Positions 2,705 through 34,827 of a stretch of DNA of 35,162 nucleotides are shown in pieces. Origin of the DNA: a virus (taxonomy: Duplodnaviria; Heunggongvirae; Uroviricota; Caudoviricetes). Numbering within the stretch: the stretch's first letter is position 1; every line of letters starts with the position of its first letter. The notes below the pieces were generated by a model. That model saw only the letters and a program-made list of their open reading frames with translations, made no database searches and had not been told where the DNA came from. The position numbers and the translations under genes were made by a program. Where the stretch lies: IMG/VR virus record IMGVR_UViG_2859810971_000008, positions 1-35,162 of that record, one strand, 5' to 3'.

Positions 2705-2729
2705 GTGCCGGATACCCCGGCACTTTTTA
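2705..2729 (+). terminator. Rho-independent terminator after the first AT3 gene
   Basis: GTGCCGG-ATACC-CCGGCAC hairpin followed by TTTTT immediately after the stop at 2688-2690. Confidence 0.5.
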
Positions 2730-4102
2730 ATCAATTTCGTAAGTGACAGTGATTATCACCTCTGCATTATTACCCAAAACATTTTGATATATATTCATAT
2801 TACCTGATAATGTAGTTGCTCCAGTAAGAGTTATATAACTACTATTTGCATCAACCCTTGGAAGTAAAGCGGTAACTGCTGTTGTTAAATTATTATAGTA
2901 GCCTGTACTTCCAACATATGCAGCTTTATTGCTTGATACATATGGTAACCCTCCAATTCTGAAACCATCTCCTGACCCAATTAAAGTTATACCAAGGTGA
3001 CATATTGCTGTTATGATATTGCCACTCCTGACATAATTTCCTTTCTGCTGATAATATGTGGCATTACCACCTACAGTCGGAATCCAAACTCCAGTTTCTA
3101 TATCACCACATGACCAGTCTTCTGCTGTTGTTAGTTTTCCAGTAACAATAAATTTACTTCCACCACCAGAATTATAAGGAACAAAAATTGGATTTATTCT
3201 TGCATAAGTGTTACCGGTCTGCTCATTAAGATCATTTCTATCAATAAGAACTTGACCATTTTCGAAGTTTGAAATCTGGCAGTCTGTTACACTCCAGTCT
3301 CTTAACTTCACATCAGCATCCATGACACCAATAAGCTTACCAGCATTACCAATTTTTTCTTTATGCATATTTACATACACATTTCTTACCGTAACAGACT
3401 GAGGGAACAGATAATTAGCAGGATTAGTTTTATCACTTAAAATAGATATTACCCAAGGTCTGTATTGAGTACTTACTTCACAATAAAATCCATCAATAAG
3501 CGTTCCAGATGCCGCTGGTCCAAGTAGTATTCCACCTGTAGAGTGATGCGCACTACCTCCAATTACTCTCCCCTTAACGCAGTTAATATAGGCAAAATAT
3601 CCTAAATCTTGATTGTCATAGGCTGACATAGCACAGTCTCTAACTGTTACTCGAGAATTTCCTCCGTCATAAGCTGAGCCATCAGTTTTCTTACCAACTA
3701 TTGATATAAAGTTACCAATAGCAACTCGACTATAAAAAGTTTTTTATAACACCCCTCAATTAAAATATCCCAGTTTTCAAACTGAGCATATATATCATAA
3801 GAGCTGGCATTCCCATAATCTATGAAATCACAACATCTTATTTTCGGCGTATAAACGGCACTTTTTATCTTTATACCACCTAATGCTCTCTCCCCACCTG
3901 TGAATCTAATGCCAGTAACGGTGTAATCGCCTTGATAGAAATTATCTGCGGTAGGATTATTTTCGTCAGAATCATCACCCAATATAATAGCAAATTCACT
4001 CCCTGAATAATTAATTGTCGCCCCCTTATTTGAATATATAGTTACAGGTCTTATAAACTCCAAAGAATTACTTATTAGATACTCTCCATAAGGAAAAAAA
4101 TC
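2727..4102 (-). pseudogene. Tailspike/tail-fibre-like receptor-binding protein remnant (beta-helix-like composition), frameshifted and lacking a start codon
   Basis: Two ORF fragments (3698..4063 and 2727..3629) in different frames; the lower frame stays open upstream to 3743, so the break is in the A/T run at 3735-3746. The upper fragment has only a TTG start and is open upstream to a stop at 4103-4105. Gly/Asn/Thr/Ser-rich repetitive sequence typical of tailspike beta-helices. AT-rich. Confidence 0.4.
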
Positions 4103-4455: not shown

Positions 4456-5481
4456 ATGACTAGTACCAATAACATAACAAGAAAAAAAATGGATGGAGTA
4501 ACAATCTTAAGATTTATAGCTGCTTTTTATGTGTTTATTTTTCACATTAACATGAGAGTCCCCGTTAATTTTGGAGAGCTTATTAATAAAACCATTAGCA
4601 ATGGCGTCATTGGCATGAGTATTTTCTTCATGCTTTCTGGTTTTGTTTTGACTTATAATTACTATGGTTCCTTGTCAAACAATTACTTCAGGAAGCGAAT
4701 AGCAAGAATATTTCCAGCCTATTTATTTTGTGGGCTTTTAACCCTCCCATTTTTGTTATCCAGCGATGCAAGCTTTTTAAAAATGATTGCAAGCATATTC
4801 TTGTTTGTTACTGGAATGCAATCATGGATTTATCAGACCTTCGATTTTTGGAATTTTAGCGGTACCTGGTCAATATCAGTGGAATTGTTTTTTTATGCCC
4901 TGTTTCCATTTTTGATAAAAAACATCAACAAAAACAATGTAATTTACGTTTTACTTTTTTCATATTTATCTTCAGCATTATTAATCCCATTATCTGATAT
5001 AATTCAGGGACCTGTAGTTTGGTCCGTATATTACGCAACTCCAATATACAGGTTACCAGAATTTGTGGTGGGCGTCTGTATCGCAATACTTTTTTTAAAT
5101 GGCTATCGTGTTAACCATTATACATGGCTATTAAGCATTTTATTATTTCTGTATGCTACCACCCAGCAAAACAATAACTCCATGGGGGTGAACTATCTCA
5201 CAATTCCTGCGATATCAATTATGTTATTGCACCTGGCAAAAATCAACATCAAAAACAATATTGCAAACAGAGCGATCATTTACTTTGGAGATATAAGTTA
5301 TTCGTTTTATTTGATGCAATTACCTATATTATATTACCTGGATCATAATAAAAACTCATTTATTCTTAACTATGGTCTTTTTAGCTGGCTTGTACTTTTT
5401 GTTATTAATACTGCAATGGCATCATTATCTTATCACTTTCTGGAGAAGAACGATAAAATCAGAAAAATAATCACATCCTGA
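4456..5481 (+). CDS. Acyltransferase family 3 (AT3) integral membrane protein; putative O-antigen O-acetyltransferase (Oac-like)
   Basis: 341 aa; motifs RFIAAFYVFIFH, FFMLSGFVLTY, multiple TM segments; size and motifs resemble phage-borne Oac-type O-acetylases; AT-rich. Confidence 0.8.
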   Translation: MTSTNNITRKKMDGVTILRFIAAFYVFIFHINMRVPVNFGELINKTISNGVIGMSIFFMLSGFVLTYNYYGSLSNNYFRKRIARIFPAYLFCGLLTLPFLLSSDASFLKMIASIFLFVTGMQSWIYQTFDFWNFSGTWSISVELFFYALFPFLIKNINKNNVIYVLLFSYLSSALLIPLSDIIQGPVVWSVYYATPIYRLPEFVVGVCIAILFLNGYRVNHYTWLLSILLFLYATTQQNNNSMGVNYLTIPAISIMLLHLAKINIKNNIANRAIIYFGDISYSFYLMQLPILYYLDHNKNSFILNYGLFSWLVLFVINTAMASLSYHFLEKNDKIRKIITS

Positions 5482-30834: not shown

Positions 30835-31294
30835 GTTTCACTCCTGCTTTGGCTAGTCTGTAAACACCAACAAGGCGCTCTGCGAACGCCCTGTTATTTG
30901 CTGCGGCTACCACTAATCCCTCAGGTGAATCAGGGTGTCGAATCTCTTCTTTTTCCTGGTATTTCTTACGACGTTTTGGCATAATTACTCCTGTGGATTG
31001 ATCCAGTCTTTCTACATCAGGCCTCGAAGAATTCGCCGTTCTTCGGGCTTTTTCTTTTGTCAGCATTCTGGCTACTTGCTTAGCCAGTTCCGCCAACTCC
31101 TCGTCTTCAACACCCCATTCAAGAACAGCCAGAAGCATTCCCATTTTTGGGATGAAGCTGTCTTTCCATCGCGAAATTTGCGATTCATTAATCCCTAACG
31201 CGTCGGCAACCTTTCGCTGACCACGTACAGCAATTCGATTCAGGATGTTGCTTGTAATTGCATTCGCTTTCTTGCGAGTACTTGTAAGTTGCAT
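30821..31294 (-). CDS. cII: CII-like transcriptional activator
   Basis: Contains ...GINESQISRWKDSFIPKMGMLLAVLEWGV..., resembling lambda CII (…SQISRWKRDWIPKFSMLLAVLEWGV…). Start chosen at the ATG at 31292-31294 (MQLTS) behind AAGGAAA. Confidence 0.65.
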   Translation of the reverse strand: MQLTSTRKKANAITSNILNRIAVRGQRKVADALGINESQISRWKDSFIPKMGMLLAVLEWGVEDEELAELAKQVARMLTKEKARRTANSSRPDVERLDQSTGVIMPKRRKKYQEKEEIRHPDSPEGLVVAAANNRAFAERLVGVYRLAKAGVKHGRR

Positions 31295-31363
31295 ATGTAA
31301 GTATTTCCTTAGATAACAATTGATTGAATGTATGCAAATAAATGCATACACCATAGGTGTGGC

Positions 31364-31395
31364 TTAATTTGATGCCCTTTTTCAGGGCTGGGATG
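31364..31395 (-). promoter_or_regulatory. nutR (boxA + boxB) N-utilisation site
   Basis: Minus strand CGCTCTTACA (boxA) followed by GCCCTGAAAAAGGGC (boxB hairpin) between cro and cII, as in lambda nutR. Confidence 0.7.
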
Positions 31396-31413
31396 TGTAA
31401 GAGCGGGAATGTC

Positions 31414-31629
31414 TTAAGCGGCTTTGTGTTCCGGCGGGAACACGTCATCAAGACTGACTTTTGCGCCTAACTTGTTTAGGCACTCAACAAGAGCACGGCA
31501 TGTTTTAAGGTCTGGGAAGCGACGACCAGATTCCCAATGTCCGATAGCTCCCTGTGTGCATCCAACTGCCTTAGCAAGTGTTGTTTGAGAGATATTCAGT
31601 GACTCTCGATATTTTCGTAGTTTGCTCAT
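31414..31629 (-). CDS. cro: Cro-like HTH repressor (XRE family)
   Basis: 71 aa from the ATG at 31627-31629 (MSKLRKYRESLNISQTTLAKAVGCTQGAIGHWESG...) preceded by GGAGGG; divergent from cI. Confidence 0.6.
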   Translation of the reverse strand: MSKLRKYRESLNISQTTLAKAVGCTQGAIGHWESGRRFPDLKTCRALVECLNKLGAKVSLDDVFPPEHKAA

Positions 31630-31649
31630 ATGCCCTCCATAGTAACCAT

Positions 31650-31732
31650 GAAACAATAATACGATATGTACTTTTAGAATGCAAACAAAAAAATACATCT
31701 TGTGCATGGATGGTTTTAGTACAGAGCGTAAT
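31650..31732. promoter_or_regulatory. Right operator region: pR (-35 TTGCAT at 31679-31684, -10 TATTAT at 31656-31661, minus strand) with two operator-like dyads
   Basis: Dyads AATACGATATGTACT (31658-31672) and AGTACAGAGCGTAAT (31718-31732) share half-sites with the pL dyad; 17-nt spacer between the -35 and -10. Confidence 0.5.
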
Positions 31733-31741
31733 AATAAGGGT

Positions 31742-32401
31742 ATGAAAATGAAATGGTATGAACTGGCTAGATCCAGAATGAAAGAGCTCGGCATAACTCA
31801 AGAGAAGTTAGCTGAAGAGCTTGGTATGACGCAGGGTGGAATTGGTCACTGGTTGCGCGGATCTCGTCATCCATCTCTTGACGAGATTGGTGTGGTGTTT
31901 AAATACCTTGGTATTGATAACGTCTCATTCAACCACGACGGTACATTTTCACCTGTTGGCGAATACTCATCTGCCCCCGTTAAAAAACAATATGAGTACC
32001 CTGTTTTTTCTCATGTTCAGGCCGGGATGTTCTCGCCTGAGCTTAGAACCTTTACCAAAGGTGATGCGGAGAGATGGGTCAGCACAACCAAAAAAGCCAG
32101 TGATTGTGCGTTCTGGCTTGAAGTTGAAGGTAATTCCATGACCGCGCCAACAGGATCCAAGCCAAGCTTTCCTGACGGGATGTTAATTCTCGTTGACCCT
32201 GAGCAGGCTGTTGAGCTAGGTGATTTCTGCATAGCCAGACTTGGTGGTGACGAGTTTACCTTCAAGAAACTGATCAGGGATAGCGGTCAGGTGTTCCTAC
32301 AGCCACTAAACCCGCAATATCCAATGATTCCATGCAATGATAGCTGTTCCGTAGTAGGGAAAGTTATCGCCAGCCAGTGGCCTGAAGAGACATTTAGTTA
32401 A
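31742..32401 (+). CDS. cI: CI repressor (LexA-like S24 peptidase C-terminal domain); hybrid with a lambda-like C-terminus
   Basis: C-terminal ~100 aa (…[93 protein letters not shown]) match the lambda CI C-terminal domain from memory; the N-terminal HTH domain differs. Start at MKMKWYEL, since the track's upstream ATG lies in pR. Confidence 0.9.
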
Positions 32402-32433
32402 CAGCCTCACAACTCTAAAACACACAACAATAA

Positions 32434-32461
32434 CCCGACCTTAGCGTCGGGTTTTCTTTTT
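32434..32461 (+). terminator. Rho-independent terminator after cI
   Basis: CCCGAC-CTTAGC-GTCGGG hairpin followed by TTTTCTTTTT; no rex genes between cI and pL. Confidence 0.7.
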
Positions 32462-32526
32462 CCAAAATATAAACCCATTAAATACAAAGCGTTATAAAAA
32501 ACTAATTATATTTAGAACATTTTGTA

Positions 32527-32562
32527 TTGACTCGATAAAGTACAAATCGTACTATTTAGCCA
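32527..32562 (+). promoter_or_regulatory. pL promoter with overlapping operator dyad
   Basis: -35 TTGACT (32527-32532), 17-nt spacer, -10 TACTAT (32550-32555); the transcript would begin near ATCAGCAGG as in lambda pL; dyad AGTACAAATCGTACT at 32539-32553 overlaps the -10. Confidence 0.6.
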
Positions 32563-32593
32563 TCAGCAGGACGTGCTAACCACCATGAAGGTG

Positions 32594-32625
32594 ACGCTCT
32601 TAAAAATTAAGCCCTGAAGAAGGGC
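32594..32625 (+). promoter_or_regulatory. nutL (boxA CGCTCTTAA + boxB GCCCTGAAGAAGGGC)
   Basis: Exact lambda-like boxA at 32594-32602 and boxB hairpin at 32611-32625, downstream of pL and upstream of N. Confidence 0.8.
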
Positions 32626-32783
32626 AGCATTCAAAGCAGAAGGCTTTGGTGTGTGTGATACGAAACGAAGCATTGGCCGGAAGTGCGAATCCGGATTAGC
32701 TGCCAATGTGCCATTGCGAGGTGTTTTCGTTCAGGACTACGACTCCCACACACAACCAAAGCTAACTGACAGGAGAATCCAGA

Positions 32784-32878
32784 TGAATGCACAAACACGC
32801 CGCCGCGAACGTCGCGCAGAGAAACAGGCTCAATGGAAAGCAGCAAATCCCCTGTTGGTTGGGGTAAACGCAAAATGA
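32784..32878 (+). pseudogene. N: Antiterminator N, truncated after codon 31 by the IS600-like insertion
   Basis: MNAQTRRRERRAEKQAQWKAANPLLVGVNAK matches the lambda N arginine-rich boxB-binding N-terminus as recalled; reading frame stops at the TGA of the IS terminal TGAGGTG. Confidence 0.8.
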
Positions 32879-32918
32879 GGTGTACTGGCAATAGCGGACA
32901 CTACCATTTGTTCTTTTT

Positions 32919-33737
32919 TTAAGCAGCCATCTGATGATATTTTTCCCTGAAGGCTGCCGGGGAGATATTCCCCAGACGAGAGTGACGACGCTGACGATTG
33001 TAGAAAATCTCAATGTATTCCCGTATTACTGAGATGGCCTCATCCCGGCTCTTAAAACGATAGTGGCTCAGGCTTTCATTTTTCAGCGTTCCCCAGAAGC
33101 TTTCCATCGGAGCGTTGTCGTAACAGTTACCTTTACGCGACATTGATGTTTTCAGACCAAACTGCTCCTGTATGACCCGGTAATCGTATGCGCAGTACTG
33201 TGAACCTCGATCAGAGTGGTGGATTAGCCCGGCAGGTGGGCGCTGGCTCCTGAGCGCCATAAACAGGGCTTTACCTGTCAGCTCTTTTGTCATGCGCTCT
33301 CCCATGGCGTAGCCGACAATTTCGCACGTATAAACATCTTTGATGCCAGCGAGGTACAACCATCCCTCCTGTGTGGCAACATACGTCAGGTCCGCCACCC
33401 AGACCTGATTTGGTGCTGTAGGAGCGAACGTCTGGTTCAGCAGATTTGGCGCAACTGGCAGATTGTGGTTCGGGTTCGTAGTCGCTCTGAACTTGCGTTT
33501 CTGCTTACAGCGTAGCCTCAGCTCCTTACGAAGACGTGCCAGTCGGTCACGACCAACGATGATGCCATTCTCTGCCAGCTCCGTCTGGAGCCGCCGGGTT
33601 CCATATGTTTCGCGAGTGCGGATATGTGCCACCTTAATCTCCAGTTTTAGCCGCTCATCACTTTGTTTTCTGTCTGAGGGTTCATGCTGTACCCAGTTGT
33701 AATAACCGCTCCTGGATACACCAAATACCTGACACAT
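32919..33737 (-). CDS. IS600-like transposase OrfB
   Basis: 272 aa IS3-family DDE transposase (…HSDRGSQYCAYDYR…YDNAPMESFWGTLK…). Confidence 0.8.
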   Translation of the reverse strand: MCQVFGVSRSGYYNWVQHEPSDRKQSDERLKLEIKVAHIRTRETYGTRRLQTELAENGIIVGRDRLARLRKELRLRCKQKRKFRATTNPNHNLPVAPNLLNQTFAPTAPNQVWVADLTYVATQEGWLYLAGIKDVYTCEIVGYAMGERMTKELTGKALFMALRSQRPPAGLIHHSDRGSQYCAYDYRVIQEQFGLKTSMSRKGNCYDNAPMESFWGTLKNESLSHYRFKSRDEAISVIREYIEIFYNRQRRHSRLGNISPAAFREKYHQMAA

Positions 33738-33772
33738 CGCTTCAATGGGAAATTGTTGTCGCCATTGTTCGA

Positions 33773-34075
33773 TTAACGCGTATTTTTCAGCGACTCCTGT
33801 GCAAAATACGCTGTTGCTTTTTTTAATATATCGCGCTCAAGGCGAGCTTCATTTAACGCCTTACGCAGTTGCAGAATTTCAGATTCCAGTTCAGCCACCG
33901 TGCGGGAACCAGGAGTACCGAGCCCTTTTCTGGCGGCGGTAACCCATTGTCCTAAAGTGCCTTCAGGAAGGGATAATCGGGAAGCGCCTTCACTGATCGA
34001 AAGTTGATTTTCAAGAACCGTTCTGACAGCTTCGGCTTTGAACTCTTTAGAGTAACGTTGGGTTTTTCTGCTCAT
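33773..34075 (-). CDS. IS600-like transposase OrfA
   Basis: 100 aa; MSRKTQRYSKEFKAEAVRTVLENQLSISEGASRLSLPEGTLGQWV... HTH plus leucine zipper typical of IS3 OrfA. Confidence 0.8.
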   Translation of the reverse strand: MSRKTQRYSKEFKAEAVRTVLENQLSISEGASRLSLPEGTLGQWVTAARKGLGTPGSRTVAELESEILQLRKALNEARLERDILKKATAYFAQESLKNTR

Positions 34076-34186
34076 TATTAGCTCCTTCTGATGCCATTCT
34101 ATTTCAGGAAGGAGTGTCCGTTAAACTCAGGCTACCTCAGTGCACCCGCCATCGATATCAGCATGGGTAGACAGAAAGATGAGAGA

Positions 34187-34277
34187 GCCGGCGCAAGCCG
34201 GTTTTTTATTTGAATTCACCGACGCCGCTTAATGCGGATTTCTTTTATCTGAACTCGCTACGGCGAGTTTTGTTTTA
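34187..34277 (+). terminator. Three tandem terminator-like hairpins
   Basis: CCGGC-GCAA-GCCGG + TTTTTTATTT (34188-34210); GCCGC-TTAAT-GCGG + ATTTCTTTTA; CTCGC-TACG-GCGAG + TTTTGTTTTA. Confidence 0.5.
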
Positions 34278-34289
34278 TGGAGATGATAA

Positions 34290-34457
34290 ATGCACTTCCG
34301 AGTAACAGGTGAATGGAATGGAGAACCATTCAACAGAGTTATCGAAGCAGAGGACATCAACGACTGCTATAACCACTGGATGATATGGGCGCAGATAGCG
34401 CATGCAGACGTAACCAATATTCGAATTGAAGAACTGAAAGAACACCAAACCGCCTGA
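34290..34457 (+). CDS. Hypothetical small protein (55 aa), unknown function
   Basis: Below the ORF-track cutoff; ATG at 34290 preceded by GGAGATGA; translation MHFRVTGEWNGEPFNRVIEAEDINDCYNHWMIWAQIAHADVTNIRIEELKEHQTA; stop sits within a terminator hairpin. Confidence 0.4.
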   Translation: MHFRVTGEWNGEPFNRVIEAEDINDCYNHWMIWAQIAHADVTNIRIEELKEHQTA

Positions 34458-34470
34458 TGGCGGTTTTTTA
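34450..34470 (+). terminator. Rho-independent terminator
   Basis: CCGCC-TGAT-GGCGG followed by TTTTTTATT. Confidence 0.6.
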
Positions 34471-34483
34471 TTGGAGACAAGAA

Positions 34484-34827
34484 ATGTCAGATTTGGCTAT
34501 GAAGATTTTGAAATGGCAATCGACTGGCGATGTCGGCATCAGTAGCGCAACTCTTGCCTCAATCGCATGTGGACTGAAAAAGAATATCTATGGTCATCAC
34601 TTCGGCGCTCCCCATGACGAGCAGACTTCCGGCGATGCGTTGCACTTGTTGAGCAGATTCCAGAAATCAGAGATTCATTCGACAAGGTTGCAAAGCGCGT
34701 TCCGGCATTCAAAGGCATCCTCAACGAATGGGATTCTCTCGTTGCTCTGTTGAAGTCTGAAATGAAGATACACGGAAACAAAGCACCAGAGACTTACAGA
34801 AGAATCAGCGAGCTACGCAAGGACTAA
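34484..34827 (+). CDS. Hypothetical protein, apparently frameshifted (about 113 aa if repaired)
   Basis: ATG at 34484 behind GGAGACAA; frame 1 decays into R/S-rich sequence while the +2 frame encodes protein-like sequence (…IRDSFDKVAKRVPAFKGILNEWDSLVALLKSEMKIHGNKAPETYRRISELRKD) to a TAA at 34825-34827. Break lies between about 34617 and 34680. Confidence 0.35.

Follow-up and report, generated by a model that had tools for sequence, protein, structure and literature searches.

Our analysis points to the N gene of this prophage being, in all likelihood, a silent pseudogene remnant at an IS600 deletion joint of a dead prophage. The remnant, hereafter N' (32783..32878, plus strand), consists of codons 1-31 of an N antiterminator gene of the lambda type, followed by a TGA stop codon, and lies within a window of 35,162 nucleotides, the whole stretch of DNA that was analysed. 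An IntS-type integrase gene opens this window, and the stop codon of a torI-type excisionase gene closes it. Since intS and torI are the two ends of E. coli prophages at the argW site, the window corresponds to the whole prophage. Its last 12,967 bases are 100% identical to the chromosome NCBI CP026810.1 (GCA_002949455.1).

The N' reading frame begins with an ATG at 32783, its final sense codon is AAA at 32873-32875 and the TGA occupies 32876-32878; the translation is MNAQTRRRERRAEKQAQWKAANPLLVGVNAK. When aligned by tblastn with residues 1-31 of lambda N, a protein of 107 aa, 29 of the 31 residues are identical (93.5%, E = 3e-15), and only two substitutions, D2N and S29N, separate N' from both lambda and phage 720R6. 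Both changes are nonsynonymous, as expected for a sequence without constraint, the sample of two changes being tiny. The peptide matches the Pfam family PF11438 (N36) above the family cut-off (E = 1.3e-20), which identifies it as carrying the boxB-recognising arginine-rich motif (ARM), and also matches the PDB entries 1QFQ, 5LM7 and 6GOV, covering the N36-boxB complex and lambda N antitermination complexes. Likeness to lambda goes beyond the coding sequence: the stretch 32561-32875, from the pL transcription start to N codon 31, is 95% identical, and the resemblance includes the Shine-Dalgarno, the leader, the nut boxes, the tR1 region and the position after pL, with nucleotide identities of 95-98%. 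In addition, N' has the placement of an N gene, directly 3' of pL and nutL and with a second nut site downstream of cro. The preservation of Shine-Dalgarno, start codon and complete ARM counts against the reading as a silent remnant.

In contrast to lambda N, N' lacks residues 32-107, which include the NusA-binding region (residues 34-47 of lambda N) and the C-terminal region that enters RNA polymerase. These residues have no match anywhere in the window, where the best other tblastn hit has E = 0.39. The original prediction, made from the sequence, that N is cut to 31 residues, retains the boxB-binding motif and has lost its NusA and RNA polymerase interaction regions is therefore borne out by the lambda N alignment, the PF11438 match and the position of the stop codon. 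An intact N elsewhere in the prophage, which would have overturned that prediction, can be set aside, given that the window is the whole prophage and contains no second N.

As for the activity of the predicted peptide, it has been shown that the ARM of lambda N binds boxB and that N(34-47) binds the AR1 domain of NusA (PMC2724277), and that the C-terminal part enters the catalytic cavity and RNA exit channel of RNAP, leading to termination resistance (PMC8632103). Without the NusA-binding stretch and the RNAP-entering C-terminal part, N' would not form an antitermination complex; we thus infer that antitermination activity has been lost, in agreement with what had been proposed earlier. With regard to RNA binding, N peptides of 22-36 residues suffice for boxB recognition (PMC2724277, PMC3035436; PDB 1QFQ, 7A4F), and the engineered G1N2K4 peptide, with three substitutions including D2N, reaches picomolar boxB affinity (PMC3035436). 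Because Asn2 occurs in this high-affinity peptide, RNA binding by N' is probably not impaired and, judging from its sequence, the N' peptide may bind boxB RNA. In this sense N' resembles the laboratory N peptides (N1-22, N1-36 and the G1N2K4 boxB tags), which share its sequence and are of similar length and, in the case of G1N2K4, carry the same Asn2 (PMC3035436). Those peptides, however, are synthetic tools, whereas N' is the accidental predicted product of an IS-truncated gene.

The sequence that closes N' is a complete IS600 element of the IS3 family (32876..34139, minus strand, 1264 bp), 97.6-99.1% identical to copies annotated as 'IS3-like element IS600 family transposase'. Both its reading frames, orfA (33773-34075, HTH_Tnp_1) and orfB (32919-33737, rve), are intact and lie on the minus strand, and the element is bounded by the imperfect terminal inverted repeats TGAGGT...CGGACACT. 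These features agree with what characterises IS600, namely a size of about 1.26 kb, ends of the TG...CA type and an orfA (HTH) that overlaps an orfB (DDE rve). The TGA stop codon of N' is formed by the first three bases of the element, since the match to N-intact phages and prophages ends at 32875 and IS600 similarity begins at 32876. The boundary thus lies at 32875/32876.

Members of the IS3 family such as IS600 generate a 3-bp target-site duplication on simple insertion. No such duplication was found flanking this copy, where the adjacent triplets are AAA on one side and GTG on the other. Moreover, the element is abutted by the 3' end of an unrelated early-left gene (34140..34232, plus strand), of which the last 30 codons and the stop codon are left. 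Their translation, VHPPSISAWVDRKMREPAQAGFLFEFTDAA, is the C-terminus of a 266-aa hypothetical protein (L007, 12293-13093), encoded in E. coli H9 two genes upstream of the torI excisionase gene. The missing duplication, which leaves the identity of IS600 unaffected, favours a deletion or rearrangement joint, and in combination with the unrelated far flank it argues for an IS600-associated deletion or rearrangement rather than a simple insertion. As a consequence, the earlier claim that an IS600 insertion ended N stands as far as N stopping at the IS600 end is concerned, but not in the form of a simple insertion. Had IS600 merely inserted into a complete N, the remainder of the gene would lie beyond the element and precise excision would restore it. 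The clean left junction and the complete element with intact transposase ORFs are what such an event would leave; the unequal flanks without a 3-bp direct repeat, the different gene beyond IS600 and the lack of any match to N residues 32-107 in the window refute it, and we give this explanation practically no credence.

What is missing from the locus is not limited to N codons 32-107 but includes the entire pL operon, which in relatives contains cIII, kil, recombination genes, ea22 and others. It could be argued that the chromosome still contains the remainder of N and this operon at a different place, beside a second IS600 copy, if IS600 mediated an inversion or translocation or if the assembler collapsed two copies of the element. 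In line with this notion, rearrangements brought about by IS elements are numerous in genomes with an abundance of IS600 and IS911 (PMC7373316), the right-hand IS600 junction is seen in one assembly alone, the source of the window, and beyond the window the attR core is followed by a yihU-like gene, not by dsdC, indicating that the chromosome is rearranged nearby. The left junction, however, is confirmed in a second data set: a 2730-bp contig of the short-read sample ERR200328 (Logan, L006) reproduces the N'/IS600 joint and the IS911 junction described below, and is identical to 30173-32901 of the window except for one base in cII, where it lacks the frameshift found here. Even if a rearrangement had taken place, the status of N' would be unchanged, since the reading frame would still end at the IS and the remainder would be without promoter and start codon; the other lesions of the prophage, in turn, show general decay. 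On balance, we consider a displaced remainder or an assembly artefact improbable.

The reading that we favour, a remnant left at a deletion joint, can be described by the following model. An ancestral lambdoid prophage filling the whole window would have had a lambda-type pL-nutL-N module. IS600 would then have been placed directly after N codon 31, providing the stop codon, and the DNA from N codon 32 through to the last 30 codons of the gene near the excisionase gene would have been lost, via recombination between two IS600 copies or via an IS600-mediated adjacent deletion or inversion. This mechanism is deduced from the structure of the joint. The nut sites and the 5' end of N would have been spared only through their place within the immunity block that extends from the truncated replication gene O' to N'.

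Across its late region (7.1-28.4 kb), the prophage shares 95-98% identity with a prophage in E. coli BY63 and with induced myoviruses, among them vB_EcoM-611R5. An IS911 element (28950..30198, minus strand), with 99% identity to annotated IS911 copies, marks a second deletion joint. Its flanks correspond to BY63 positions 22985 and 28709, which are 5.7 kb apart there, and it joins residue 99 of the late antiterminator Q to residue 212 of the replication protein O. What has gone from this joint is the part of Q that encodes residues 1-98, together with nin, the helicase gene and the 3' end of O. On one side, Q' (28724..28948, minus strand) retains residues 99-172 alone by comparison with BY63 Q; on the other, O' (30199..30834, minus strand; PF04492) retains the N-terminal 212 codons, cut by IS911, of a protein that has 273 aa in the BY63 version used in the alignment. 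Two further lesions are point changes. In cII (30821..31294, minus strand), alignment with the BY63 prophage reveals the loss of one base from a C run (C4 to C3, near 31044), which fuses residues 1-82 to the next small ORF, giving a product of 157 aa, and the terS gene carries a nonsense codon, CGA to TGA, at 25608-25610.

The prophage therefore carries at least five lesions and is multiply defective. N, Q, replication, terminase and the recombination/excision operon, which are intact in a functional, inducible lambdoid prophage, are not intact here, and the prophage would be dead even were N working, given the damage to Q, to nin, helicase and the O 3' end, to terS and to cII. Scans of the window for Rfam families at gathering thresholds and for tRNA genes gave no matches. 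The expansion of IS600 and IS911, accompanied by IS-mediated deletions, has been described as a hallmark of genome decay in Shigella and enteroinvasive E. coli (EIEC) (PMC7373316, PMC9629502). The occurrence of both elements here, along with a source chromosome of 4.53 Mb, suggests that the prophage comes from Shigella or EIEC. The IS-disrupted cryptic prophages of Shigella, EIEC and E. coli show the same features as the present one, namely IS600 or IS911 at deletion joints, pseudogenes and a retained immunity region (PMC7373316, PMC9629502). The locus is accordingly a case of ordinary, already-known IS-driven pseudogenisation; no new system is involved.

Between the two IS elements, a block of 2.7 kb is left, containing O', the frameshifted cII, nutR, cro, cI, pL, nutL and N'. 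The recognisable pL, nutL and nutR of the original prediction were recovered by alignment, promoter scan and pattern search, with small refinements of their coordinates. The promoter pL (32527..32555, plus strand) aligns with lambda pL and consists of a -35 element TTGACT (32527-32532), a 17-nt spacer and a -10 element TACTAT (32550-32555). Downstream of it, nutL (32595..32625, plus strand) comprises boxA CGCTCTTAA at 32595-32603 and boxB GCCCTGAAGAAGGGC at 32611-32625, and on the opposite strand nutR (31374..31405) comprises boxA CGCTCTTAC at 31397-31405 and boxB GCCCTGAAAAAGGGC at 31374-31388. At both sites, boxA and boxB are identical to those of lambda in the alignment. The pattern CGCTCTTA-N(5-12)-GCCCTGAARAAGGGC has two exact matches in the window, nutL and nutR, against 0.00 expected from 100 shuffles, and both boxB elements are predicted to fold into a 5-bp stem with a pentaloop (z = -2.66 for the nutR fold). 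The two sites thus have the organisation of lambda-type nut sites, in which boxA CGCTCTTA is followed, after a short spacer, by a boxB hairpin of 15 nt whose loop is GAAGA or GAAAA. A lambda-like tR1 region extends 3' of nutR down to the cII start at 31294, and the nutR/tR1 region is 98.3% identical to lambda 38248-38362.

The cI gene (31706..32401, plus strand) is full length, with the Pfam domains HTH_3 and Peptidase_S24, and its alignment with lambda cI shows conservation of the Ala-Gly cleavage site and of the Ser and Lys catalytic motifs, which counts against the silent-remnant reading of N'. A single substitution, P171L, distinguishes it from its relatives and is a further point against that reading. 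The cro-like repressor gene (31414..31629, minus strand; 71 aa, HTH_3) likewise shows one substitution, N3K, with respect to phage 720R6, and is transcribed from pR, identified by promoter scan on the minus strand (-35 at 31685-31680, -10 at 31661-31656). The operator pattern search revealed a 15-bp palindrome, AGTACAAATCGTACT, at 32539-32553, which overlaps the pL -10 element and recurs over the pR -10 element with one mismatch; a 20-nt inverted match links 32537-32556 with 31655-31674 in the pR region, and a weaker operator site is found at 32514-32528. In its operators, and in the parts of cI and Cro that bind DNA, the prophage differs from lambda and is of another immunity type. The P22-like phages vB_EcoP-720R6, Louie and Dewey have this type too, and the immunity region is 99% identical to theirs.

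These features bear directly on the expression of N'. The overlap of pL with an operator shared with pR, together with an intact cI, suggests that pL is repressed by cI in normal growth, and that the N' peptide is probably not made under those conditions. Given that cI keeps its autocleavage motifs, pL could fire on SOS induction and the N' peptide could then be made. The intact nut sites, for their part, have no special meaning, since they survive in the immunity block between the two deletions bounded by IS elements, and the targets that lay downstream of them (Q, nin and the pL operon) are deleted.

It is nevertheless worth considering that the ARM peptide has been domesticated as a boxB decoy. 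According to this idea, the peptide would be expressed at a low constitutive level or on SOS induction, occupy boxB on the RNAs of co-resident or superinfecting phages with lambda-type nut sites, compete with their full-length N and block their early gene expression. To our knowledge, the Nun protein of HK022 is the only precedent for a prophage-encoded boxB binder acting against other phages, and the exclusion envisaged here would be loosely analogous to it. Nun, too, has an ARM and binds lambda boxB in competition with N, showing that such competition can exclude a phage (PMC5386594). Other observations would fit a decoy as well: the ORF, its Shine-Dalgarno, the ARM and both nut sites are intact, 22-36 residues are enough for boxB binding (PDB 1QFQ, 7A4F), Asn2 is compatible with very high affinity (PMC3035436), and further E. 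coli prophage relics contain independent N remnants in which the 5' part with the ARM is kept. Against it, Nun needs its own C-terminal segment, which arrests RNA polymerase, and is expressed from the prophage, whereas N' is without an effector segment, so that its ARM alone would merely compete, and lies behind a repressed pL. The operator of the intact cI lies across pL, and superinfection by a heteroimmune phage would leave this repression in place. The nonsynonymous nature of both N' changes and the decay of all neighbouring functions also speak against a maintained role. We regard a boxB decoy as very unlikely.

The distribution of the joint and of other N stubs is more in keeping with a silent remnant generated by deletion. 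Apart from the source chromosome, CP026810.1, the sample ERR200328 is the one place where the N codon 31/IS600 joint was found. An exact look-up of the 31-aa peptide returned no record, and the 75-aa upstream-extended N' ORF that is on record traces to ERR200328. In a junction-spanning megablast search of 5426 complete E. coli genomes, neither junction was spanned, and the exact junction patterns had no matches in GTDB species representatives, IMG/VR or JGI metagenomes; the absence from the complete genomes and from these three other collections gives no sign of spread, which speaks against a decoy. In this restricted occurrence the joint differs from the general pattern of IS-disrupted prophages, among which N 5' remnants as such are found in NCCP12480, O157:H7 and other strains.

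E. coli NCCP12480 carries a different joint, giving an in-frame N(1-33)::DUF551 fusion; an alignment that seemed to extend 15 nt into IS600 in this strain is a chance partial match. Three further assemblies carry N(1-28) followed by PEPPL, N(1-36) followed by G, and N(1-34) followed by 11 aa, with no 3' part of N nearby, and in many O157:H7 genomes about 20 N codons are kept beside an integrase gene. Altogether, the 5' remnants seen in unrelated relics of E. coli prophages range from about 20 to 36 codons and have differing joints, a pattern that fits deletions with randomly placed end points beside a retained immunity region. N stubs are thus what deletions commonly leave behind when the neighbouring immunity region is spared. 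A hot spot of truncation, or selection, at codons 28-36 was considered and set aside as unproven: the clustering comes from a length-restricted protein cluster and the O157:H7 remnants stop near codon 20, so that it reflects an ascertainment effect and is not readable as selection. The proposal that an ARM-only peptide with D2N, made from a cleaved or leaky repressor state, acts as a boxB decoy and blunts N-dependent early expression of phages with lambda-type nut sites in the same cell, and that the recurrence of stubs results from selection and not from chance, has in our view only a very slight probability.

Taken together, our findings indicate that this locus is correctly annotated as a pseudogene of N, placed at a deletion joint with IS600 in a prophage that has several other defects, and that the coexistence of intact nut sites with an ARM peptide is not to be taken for a working or re-purposed antitermination module. 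Further interest in the stub would require evidence of its expression and of interference with lambdoid phages other than this one. As it stands, the locus provides a clean textbook case of prophage decay driven by IS600 and IS911, in which the survivor is the immunity block with cI, cro, the operators and the nut sites.

Truncation of a lambda-type N gene with retention of the arginine-rich boxB-binding motif (ARM) is not confined to the 31-codon remnant left by IS600, as it has arisen independently in E. coli NCCP12480 (L001), in three further assemblies (L010, L012 and L013) and in O157:H7 genomes. In NCCP12480, the first 33 residues of N are fused in frame to a DUF551 sequence (L001 5484-5815), while the truncations among L010, L012 and L013 comprise N(1-28) followed by PEPPL, N(1-36) followed by a single G, and N(1-34) followed by 11 aa, the last with cIII, kil and recT remaining downstream. 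Many O157:H7 genomes carry an N stub of about 20 codons adjoining an integrase gene.

When 31414-32875 was compared with the 99%-identical phage vB_EcoP-720R6, all the coding differences checked were nonsynonymous: P171L in cI, N3K in Cro, and D2N and S29N in N. This pattern is consistent with relaxed constraint, in very small numbers. The cII gene (30821-31294, minus strand) contains a 1-bp deletion within a C run at about 31044, which joins residues 1-82 to a downstream 53-aa ORF and yields a product of 157 aa in total. Since the deletion is absent from an otherwise identical short-read contig (L006, sample ERR200328), it is specific to this strain or else a sequencing error in the homopolymer.

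IS911 (28950-30198) is flanked by codon 99 of Q and codon 212 of O, positions that lie 5.7 kb apart in an intact relative. GAT is present at both edges of the element and resembles a 3-bp target duplication; the match is due to chance (1 in 64) unless the deletion is older than the insertion.

Between IS600 and torI, four terminator-like hairpins lie on the plus strand (34182, 34251, 34447 and 34896), together with an ORF (34457-34753, plus strand) that has 94% nucleotide identity to a gene for a 114-aa hypothetical protein in the related prophage of E. coli BY63. The second half of this ORF reads otherwise than the BY63 gene, which suggests that one more early-left gene is frameshifted. Also relative to BY63, the small terminase subunit gene carries a premature stop (CGA to TGA, about codon 72; 25608-25610, minus strand), and the HNH gene adjoining it in BY63 is missing here.

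Past the right end of the window, beyond torI and an attR-like sequence of about 85 bp, the source chromosome (CP026810.1; L008 1-3672) carries yihU/yihT-, yihS- and yihR-like genes. Because dsdC is the neighbour in E. coli, these genes indicate that the chromosome has been rearranged where the prophage ends. Two minus-strand ORFs (2727-3629 and 3698-4063) gave no family match. The stretch from intS to the tail-fibre genes holds two plus-strand genes (1515-2690 and 4456-5481) for membrane acyltransferases of the Acyl_transf_3 family, both of which could be O-antigen acetylase-type morons, that is, lysogenic conversion genes.
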